In this document: piece after piece, positions 664 to 1,795 of the stretch
How the letters are laid out: each line of letters starts with the position of its first letter
Numbering within the stretch: position 1 is the first letter of the stretch
Source of the DNA: a virus
Taxonomy: Duplodnaviria > Heunggongvirae > Uroviricota > Caudoviricetes > Autographiviridae
Reading direction: 5' to 3' (one strand)
IMG/VR virus record: IMGVR_UViG_2778261646_000012
Length of the DNA: 5,187 bases
Position numbers and translations under genes: made by a program
The notes under the pieces: model-generated
The model's database searches: none
What the model saw: only the letters and a program-made list of their open reading frames with translations
Told to the model about the DNA's origin: nothing

Positions 664-804
664 ATGAAAGTTAGAGACATCGCTCCATTAGGGATTCGTA
701 TCCCACCAGAGATTAAAGAAAAATTGAAGGAAAAGGCTAAGGAGGAGGGCAGGTCTTTAAATTCAGAAATAGTGAAGCGTCTTATTCGCAGCCTAAAAAG
801 TTGA
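664..804 (+). CDS. arc: Arc-like ribbon-helix-helix repressor (46 aa)
   Basis: ATG at 664 is preceded by GAGGTGG (655..661). The product [40 protein letters not shown] has the Arc/Mnt RHH signature (beta-strand, then helix, then GRSxNSE) and sits where arc sits in the P22 immI region, between mnt and ant. The longer track ORF from 604 starts at TTG. Confidence 0.75.
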
Positions 805-834
805 AGCCCCAACTGCTGGAACAGTCGGGGCTTC
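795..834 (-). terminator. Hairpin followed by a T-run on the minus strand; candidate terminator of a sar-like antisense RNA
   Basis: GAAGCCCC (803..810) pairs with GGGGCTTC (827..834), with an inner ACTG/CAGT pair. On the minus strand the stem is followed by AACTTTTTA (802..794). On the plus strand no U-tract follows. Located in the arc-ant intergenic region. Confidence 0.4.
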
Positions 835-865
835 GGTATCAACAAATCAGATAGGAATTATTGAT

Positions 866-1795
866 ATGACAAGTTTAGCAAAGTCAACATTAAATTGCAC
901 TAACAGCATCACCATTTCAGACGTCAAGATTCATATGGATTCAGAGGGGCGTTACTCGCTTAATGACCTGCACAAGGCATCAGGTAAAGAGCGTCGTCAT
1001 GAGCCTGCGGCGTGGCTGCGACTCGAACAAACCAATGAGTTAGTTCAAGAAATTCTAAATACACAGATGTGTGTATTTAAAAATGGCGATAACTTTAATT
1101 CTTCAGAATCGCAGATTAAGAAGCCAATGGACTCTAAGAAGGGTCGCTACGGAGGCACCTACGTGTGCAAGGAGCTTGTTTACTCCTACGCCATGTGGAT
1201 TAGCGCAGCCTTTGCGCTGAAGGTTATCCGTGCATATGACGCAATGGTTACTGCCACACAAGAGAGGAAAGCTATTGGCGGTAAAACTTCAGTAGCTGAA
1301 CGCACACCGCTACGAGATGCAGTAAACATGCTGGTAGGAAAGAAAGGACTTCGCTATGACGATGCATACAATATGGTTCATCAGCGTTTTGGTATTGACA
1401 GCATTGATGAACTTTCAATTGAACAAATCCCGCTGGCCGTAGAGTACATCCACAGGGTAGTGCTTGAAGGTGAGTTCATCGGCAAACAAGAGAAGAAAAC
1501 CAACGAGCTTTCTGCAAAAGAAGCAAACAGCCTTGTATGGTTATGGGATTATGCCAACCGCTCACAGGCATTATTCCGCGAACTGTATCCGGCATTAAAA
1601 CAAATTCAATCGAACTATTCCGGCAGATGTCATGACTGCGGTTATGAGTTCTCCCGTATTATCGATATGGCGAGAGATGTTTTAATCAACCATACACGAG
1701 ATGTTGATATTAATGAGCCAGACGGACCAACGAATCTTTCCGCATGGATGAGACTTAAGAATAAAGAATTACCTCCTTCAGTACATAACTACTGA
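866..1795 (+). CDS. ant: Antirepressor Ant with KilA-N-type N-terminal domain (309 aa)
   Basis: ATG at 866 with AGGA (853..856) 9 nt upstream. The N-terminal region ([14 protein letters not shown]...PAAWLR...[25 protein letters not shown]) matches the KilA-N DNA-binding domain pattern. Size and position downstream of arc match P22 ant. Confidence 0.8.

Follow-up and report, generated by a model that had tools for sequence, protein, structure and literature searches.

The minus strand of the arc-ant spacer very probably carries a P22-type sar (small antisense regulatory) RNA gene, which belongs to a CUS-3-like prophage and is predicted to repress ant, with the RNA ends and the repression assigned from work on P22. 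We upheld this reading on four grounds: a match to the Rfam sar family, positional homology with the sar loci of phages P22 and epsilon34, a covarying two-hairpin structure, and the mnt-arc-ant context. The initial annotation had suggested a sar-like antisense RNA that is made from within ant, covers the ribosome-binding region and ends in the spacer, and the sequence evidence presented here (RF00262, P22/epsilon34 homology, covariation, and context) supports that suggestion. The element as a whole stands well above chance (Rfam E = 6e-13, fold z = -7.85).

Genomic context of the arc-ant spacer

The window, by which we mean the whole 5187-bp stretch analyzed, is 99.9% identical to E. coli O7:K1 CE10 (window 300-1900 corresponds to NC_017646 834848-836448), and its nearest records are assigned to Lederbergvirus. 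The mnt, arc, and ant reading frames are all intact (Table 1). Both repressors have Arc domains, Ant combines KilA-N with P22_AR_C and is named 'phage antirepressor Ant' in RefSeq CE10, and the tailspike contains a P22 head-binding domain. From this gene set and a terminal neuO repeat we therefore assigned the window to a CUS-3-like, P22-type prophage, of which it holds the immI region (mnt, arc, ant), the endosialidase tailspike gene, and the 5' repeat of neuO.

Table 1. Coordinates of the sar locus and of neighboring features in the window
Feature	Position	Strand	Basis and remarks
Mnt-like repressor	306..554	-	Arc domain (Pfam)
Pant-like promoter, TTGACT-16-TAGTAT	604..631	+	Promoter scan 9/12; position as curated Pant of P22 and epsilon34 (between mnt and arc)
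arc, 46 aa, Arc-like ribbon-helix-helix repressor	664..804	+	Pfam PF03869 Arc E = 4e-12; RefSeq CDS in CE10
U5 tract of predicted sar terminator	795..799	-	Sequence and scan tail AACTTTTTAG; overlaps last arc codons
Predicted sar RNA, ~69 nt	797..865	-	RF00262 match; ends by homology with P22 BK000583 and alignment A1
sar stem-loop 2, predicted intrinsic terminator hairpin, 14 bp, 8 G-C, 4-nt loop	803..834	-	Terminator scan
sar stem-loop 1, 8-bp stem (865..858 with 845..838)	838..865	-	RNAfold
Predicted target: ant Shine-Dalgarno AGGA 853..856 and start codon ATG 866..868	853..868	+	Sequence
ant, antirepressor, 309 aa	866..1795	+	Pfam KilA-N E = 1e-22, P22_AR_C E = 3e-29
Putative Psar extended -10, TGcTAAACT (TG 880..879, hexamer TAAACT 877..872)	872..880	-	Aligns with P22 TGCTATACT; inside ant codons 3-5
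Putative Psar -35-like hexamer, GTGCAA	895..900	-	17-bp spacer; consensus match 3/6; homologous to P22 GTGTTA, epsilon34 GTGTTC
Tailspike, 981-aa ORF	1896..4841		P22 head-binding domain fused to endosialidase domains

The Pant-like promoter lies in the mnt-arc intergenic control region (558..663), and by its position it would drive the target mRNA (arc-ant) and be convergent with Psar. Transcription from Pant, when strong, runs against Psar and interferes with it; this ends once Arc has switched Pant off. Two further elements of the same control region, a direct repeat (CACGGTGTAG, 619..628 and 641..650) and a palindrome (CTACACAGTGTAG, near 580..592), are probably the Arc and Mnt operators, and they are unlike those of P22. 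A strong plus-strand intrinsic terminator (GACCCAGCTTCGGCTGGGTT followed by T7) lies right behind ant at 1813..1838, between ant and the tailspike gene.

What CE10 carries of the prophage (L005, NC_017646 830848-840448) is a remnant, in which IS3 has inserted and the DNA-transfer gene is truncated. Its gene order is cIII and kil, the IS3 element, the DNA-transfer gene without its N-terminus, a ClpP-like gene, mnt, arc, ant, tailspike, and neuO; the minus-strand window ORF at 109..306 is the 3' portion of the ClpP-like gene.

Identity and position of the predicted RNA

We searched the window against all Rfam families and obtained a minus-strand match to RF00262 (sar RNA) at 864..799, with 67.6 bits against a gathering threshold of 43 (E = 6.1e-13). 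The match is not truncated but spans positions 1-68 of the 68-position model. With the same model P22 scored 97.8, CUS-3 84.6, Kapi1 72.4, PhiR12_1 69.4, Emek 61.7, SPN3UB 48.0, and the Klebsiella phage ST101-KPC2phi6.1 38.6 bits. The homologues other than P22 thus matched at 38.6-84.6 bits, each over the full model (1-68), and among the phages scanned, epsilon34 not being one of them, all exceeded the threshold of 43 except the Klebsiella phage. At E <= 1, no other antisense family of Rfam matched in the window except ctRNA_pGA1 (RF00236), at 848..790. We rejected this sub-threshold hit (27.9 bits against a gathering threshold of 45, E = 0.016): it consists of a generic hairpin and U-run only, and the plasmid replication context is absent.

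The curated P22 record (BK000583) has a sar misc_RNA (15021..15090) that directly adjoins the ant ATG (15091), with a terminator at 15021..15058 and a promoter at 15097..15125, and the epsilon34 record has sar RNA, terminator, and promoter in the same layout. Transferred through alignment A1, the P22 features correspond to a window sar at about 865..797, a terminator at 834..795, and a promoter at 872..900. The predicted 5' end is approximately A865, the base preceding the ant ATG, and the 3' end falls within the U-run 799..795. The element is antisense to the arc-ant intercistronic region and perfectly complementary to the leader, from just within arc up to the base preceding the ant ATG. The ant Shine-Dalgarno lies wholly within the covered interval and the ATG immediately outside it. 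At the other end the predicted RNA overlaps the 3' end of arc, whose stop codon TGA occupies 802..804. The putative promoter extends to 900, 10 nt beyond the interval first proposed (795-890); the initial annotation had set it some 10 bases too far downstream.

The locus is P22-like in several ways: a predicted antisense RNA of the ~69 nt class in the arc-ant spacer with its 5' end at the ant ATG, its 3' end over the arc stop, two hairpins, and a near-identical terminator hairpin. Its partners differ from those of P22: Arc has 46 aa, Ant is of the KilA-N type, and the host is E. coli K1. Transcription probably starts at an A in the window, against a G in P22.

Structure, terminator, and covariation

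The predicted RNA (865..795) folds into two hairpins with -33 kcal/mol (RNAfold), whereas shuffled sequences average -11.4 kcal/mol; none of 200 shuffles folded as well (z = -7.85). The P22 sar folds into the same two-hairpin architecture. The upper part of stem-loop 1 holds the anti-Shine-Dalgarno UUCCU (857..853), the complement of ant AGGAA, where P22 has CUCC. In sequence the 5' hairpin is nearly all different from that of P22: all six stem-1 pairs of the Rfam model are changed, and all still pair. Stem-1 reads GUUGGU/ACUGAC in P22, UCAAUA/UGUUGA in the window, and UCGU/ACGA in CUS-3, and the fold was the same in each of the 18 distinct 5'-arm alleles of related loci, different as their stem sequences are. 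The 5' arm of the window is an allele of its own, a few substitutions away from its nearest relatives, the Kapi1/PhiR12_1 type (UCAAUAUUUCCU...).

Stem-loop 2 is homologous to the curated P22 sar terminator. It is the sole terminator-like element of the arc-ant spacer and it works on the minus strand, as the initial annotation had stated: the scan called the hairpin 834..803, with 14 pairs and a U-run. Behind the hairpin the minus strand reads AACUUUUU, with AACUUUUUAG as the tail reported by the scan, and its U-run is U5 compared with U3 in P22. We rejected a reading of the hairpin as a plus-strand terminator or attenuator: on that strand it is followed by GGTATCAAC, there is no T-run, and the scan made no call. 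Fold, scan, and covariation together agree with two stem-loops of which the 3' one is a predicted Rho-independent terminator on the antisense strand only.

We then asked how well the pairs hold across homologues. MAFFT alignments A2 and A3 set the P22-type 5' arm one column off the structural register, so 26 sequences were re-aligned with a covariance model before pairs were counted; owing to that offset, P22-type rows keep some 'unpaired' cells at the helix-1 ends. In 25 distinct homologues, 93% of pair cells hold, compared with 33-47% in controls in which the 3' partners were slid. Six pairs are altered on both sides, and 0 of 500 shuffles reached the observed covariation score. Stem-loop 1 has compensatory changes at three of its seven pairs; in stem-loop 2 all cells (100%) are paired in the 25 sequences and three pairs are altered on both sides. 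As the homologues are related and their alignment was fitted to the structure, we take these figures as support and not as proof.

A conserved putative promoter inside the ant coding sequence

The initial annotation found only the terminator half of the evidence convincing. The terminator-like hairpin is indeed real, and a putative promoter half lies at 872..900, in the form of a homologous extended -10 with a weak -35. Psar of P22 was mapped experimentally. The curated P22 sar promoter (15097..15125) covers ant positions +7 to +35, which are 872..900 in the window, so by sequence homology the putative Psar sits in the 5' end of ant where P22 has its own, embedded in ant codons 3-12. It shares with P22 the same ant codons, the TGc extended -10 motif, and the 17-bp spacer, and differs in its hexamers: TAAACT instead of TATACT at -10, a T-to-A change at the third position, and GTGCAA instead of GTGTTA at -35. 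The same layout is common to CUS-3, Kapi1, PhiR12_1, Emek, epsilon34, SPN3UB, and the Klebsiella phage.

With consensus matches of 3/6 at -35 and 4/6 at -10, Psar was not called by a simple promoter scan, which missed it because the -35 has only three matches. TGnTAnnnT motifs are not enriched in the window, and therefore it is homology and conservation that make the case for Psar. To assess conservation we compiled 129 related loci, comprising 120 viral contigs found by a pattern scan, phage records, and the window. These fall into 12 Ant N-terminal 14-residue peptides and 14 promoter alleles, and since the allele classes are few (~10) and related, the counts that follow are not independent events. 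The TTGC sequence and the bases T-12, A-11, and T-7 are invariant in 129/129 loci despite the divergent Ant N-termini. The -10 hexamer occurs as TATACT, TACACT, TAAGCT, TAAACT, and TACAAT, varying at only the three least critical positions, and the -35 form xTGxxx is kept in 13 of the 14 promoter alleles.

The codons of ant behave accordingly in all these loci. The Ala codon is GCA in every one of the 129; directly ahead of it stands an NTA codon throughout (Val GTA, Leu TTA, or the rare Ile codon ATA), with CTG and TTG never used; and one codon further upstream the loci have AGY (Ser), apart from SPN3UB with ATT. TAAACT itself is found again in the Klebsiella phage and in viral contig L019, combined with a different Ant N-terminus in each case. 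Judged from these alignments, the key bases of the promoter are held by synonymous codon choices in ant.

Alternative readings

The initial annotation had drawn a different promoter for the antisense RNA, built on the minus-strand TTGACT at 887..882. Paired with TATCAA (866..861, 15-bp spacer) or AATAAT (862..857, 19-bp spacer), it would give an RNA of about 50-55 nt starting near 850-855. TTGACT is indeed present and matches five of six -35 consensus bases, AATAAT matches five of six -10 bases, and both also occur in a related MSSLAKS[TA] allele. Yet both spacers fall outside the usual 16-18 bp, TATCAA has no T at -7, and the promoter scan reported neither pair. TTGACT is confined to ant alleles starting M[TS]SLAKS[TA], where it is accounted for by the codons AAG-TCA-AC (K-S-T), and is missing from the other Ant-allele classes, P22 included; in the window it occurs at chance frequency (3 seen, 3.85 expected). 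It is not the homologous -35 but lies within the Psar spacer, 4 nt upstream of the -10, and the bases of TATCAA, though present, are the first six around the predicted sar start. An RNA starting near 850 would moreover lack the 5' half of hairpin 1, which is conserved and covarying, as well as most of the anti-Shine-Dalgarno. We therefore rejected the TTGACT-TATCAA promoter on account of its 15-bp spacer, its lack of T at -7, its restriction to one ant allele group, and its chance-level frequency, and we regard an antisense RNA from either TTGACT pair as extremely improbable. The promoter half had seemed weak because a -10 was sought downstream of TTGACT.

A second alternative dispenses with the antisense RNA: the hairpin would be kept only for the structure that it gives to the leader of the arc-ant mRNA, or because it serves recombination as a 'boundary sequence' between the arc and ant modules, while Psar would have decayed in a remnant prophage. 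Several observations fit it. The 34-nt hairpin is a mosaic joint, at which 10 ant-side and 18 arc-side classes meet in 39 combinations (125 loci), and the 'bsq2 boundary sequence' annotation of CUS-3 ends at the hairpin; the plus strand also folds, into mirrored hairpins with z = -3.6; the prophage is degraded and the Psar hexamers are weak. A role as a recombination joint, however, is compatible with an RNA function, the full-length RF00262 score lies above the gathering threshold, and mnt, arc, and ant are intact. Nor does a locus without an RNA explain why the U-run is found on the minus strand only, and is longer (U5) than that of P22, or why the key bases of Psar and their synonymous codons are intact in the window allele and in independent TAAACT alleles. 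We consider it very unlikely. Because the CE10 prophage is a remnant, selection on the sar circuit may be relaxed.

Proposed mode of action and relation to known antisense RNAs

The literature on the sar RNA of Salmonella phage P22 reportedly includes Liao et al. 1987, Wu et al. 1987, and Schaefer and McClure 1997. In P22 the sar RNA, 68/69 nt long, pairs with the ant mRNA and blocks its ribosome-binding site (PMC12197685; PMC7968456). It limits antirepressor synthesis and is needed for the proper establishment of lysogeny (PMC12197685; PMC7968456; PMC2629481), and it was detected by RNA-seq in P22-infected cells (PMC13397905). It is from this work that we infer, for the present locus, that sar is transcribed, where exactly the RNA begins and ends, that it represses translation, and what its biological role is.

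Under the sar reading, sigma-70 RNA polymerase would start on the minus strand at Psar (extended -10 880..872, weak -35 900..895), at about A865, transcribe some 69 nt, and stop at the intrinsic terminator (hairpin 834..803 and U5 799..795) that overlaps the arc stop codon. The RNA would fold into its two hairpins, the 5' one presenting the anti-Shine-Dalgarno UUCCU, and would pair with the leader of the arc-ant mRNA across 797..865. The ant Shine-Dalgarno AGGA (853..856) would thereby be masked and ribosome loading blocked. Little antirepressor would then be made from Pant or from read-through transcripts, the main prophage repressor would be protected, and lysogeny would be favored.

The c4 RNA is processed from a same-strand transcript upstream of its target and determines heteroimmunity. 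Like the proposed window sar, c4 of P1/P7, which controls ant, is a small structured RNA, and it makes the ribosome-binding region of its antirepressor mRNA inaccessible (PMC12197685). The window element had no Rfam match to c4 at E <= 1 and is not a member of that family. OOP of lambda targets the 3' end of cII and acts via RNase III cleavage, while RNA-OUT of IS10 covers the start codon of the transposase gene. Both resemble the predicted sar: they are short antisense RNAs encoded in cis, they terminate intrinsically, and the convergent mRNA on which they act is affected in its 5' or its 3' part. Neither has sequence or structure homology to it (Rfam).

Distribution and the arc/ant module joint

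A sar/Psar-like sequence is found in 831 of 5426 complete E. coli genomes (~15%), O157:H7 strains included, with up to three copies per genome, and also in many Salmonella phages. The 34-nt hairpin pattern had no match in one-genome-per-species contigs, and its range is known from the phage, viral-contig, and E. coli sets. Annotation of sar is confined to the P22 and epsilon34 records and is missing from the RefSeq CE10 and CUS-3 records. The window sar is thus a hitherto unannotated copy within a long-known family and not a new kind of element. The importance of the locus lies chiefly in annotation, sar-like sequence being present in that share of E. coli genomes yet sar being unannotated in CE10 and CUS-3. 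As work on P22 had established the mechanism by 1987, no new question is opened. The placement of Psar does explain the odd codons at the start of ant (rare ATA, invariant GCA, AGY), and the locus offers a case of one promoter preserved within a diverging coding sequence.

The 34-nt terminator hairpin (803..836) is nearly invariant, and both its flanks are mosaic, the 10 ant-5' and 18 arc-side classes being reassorted in 39 combinations across 125 loci (L001-L125). Thus the sar terminator coincides with the recombination joint of the arc and ant modules. A bolder interpretation, which we think rather unlikely, is that the hairpin is a selected 'universal joint' at which arc-side and ant-side modules recombine freely and a working sar is always regenerated, and that sar alleles might, or might not, cross-repress ant of co-resident or superinfecting P22-like phages. 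Cross-repression might occur because the 3' hairpin is common to all and the 5' arms come in few alleles; the data that bear on this interpretation cover reassortment (the 39 combinations) and copy number, not action in trans. If true, it would amount to an RNA-level immunity specificity comparable to that of c4 in P1/P7.

Tailspike and neuO regions of the window

The tailspike ORF is intact in the window, and the RefSeq CE10 copy is flagged as frameshifted. Its product comprises the P22 head-binding domain (residues 1-113), the endosialidase N-terminal, beta-propeller, beta-barrel, and tail-spike domains, and, at the C-terminus, an S74 chaperone domain. The start of neuO occupies 4995..5187, with the ATG at 4995 followed by TC and then by 27.1 copies of the heptanucleotide AAGACTC at 100% identity up to the window end. 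The copy number of the repeat cannot be read because the window is cut within it. AAGACTC is the phase-variable 'poly-psi' VNTR of the CUS-3 polysialic-acid O-acetyltransferase gene neuO (PMC3046976). Upstream of neuO, at 4950..5001, the promoter scan reported two facing promoter-like sites, each 10/12: ATGACA-17-TAAAAT with TG on the plus strand, a candidate neuO promoter, and TTGACA-16-TATTTT on the minus strand.
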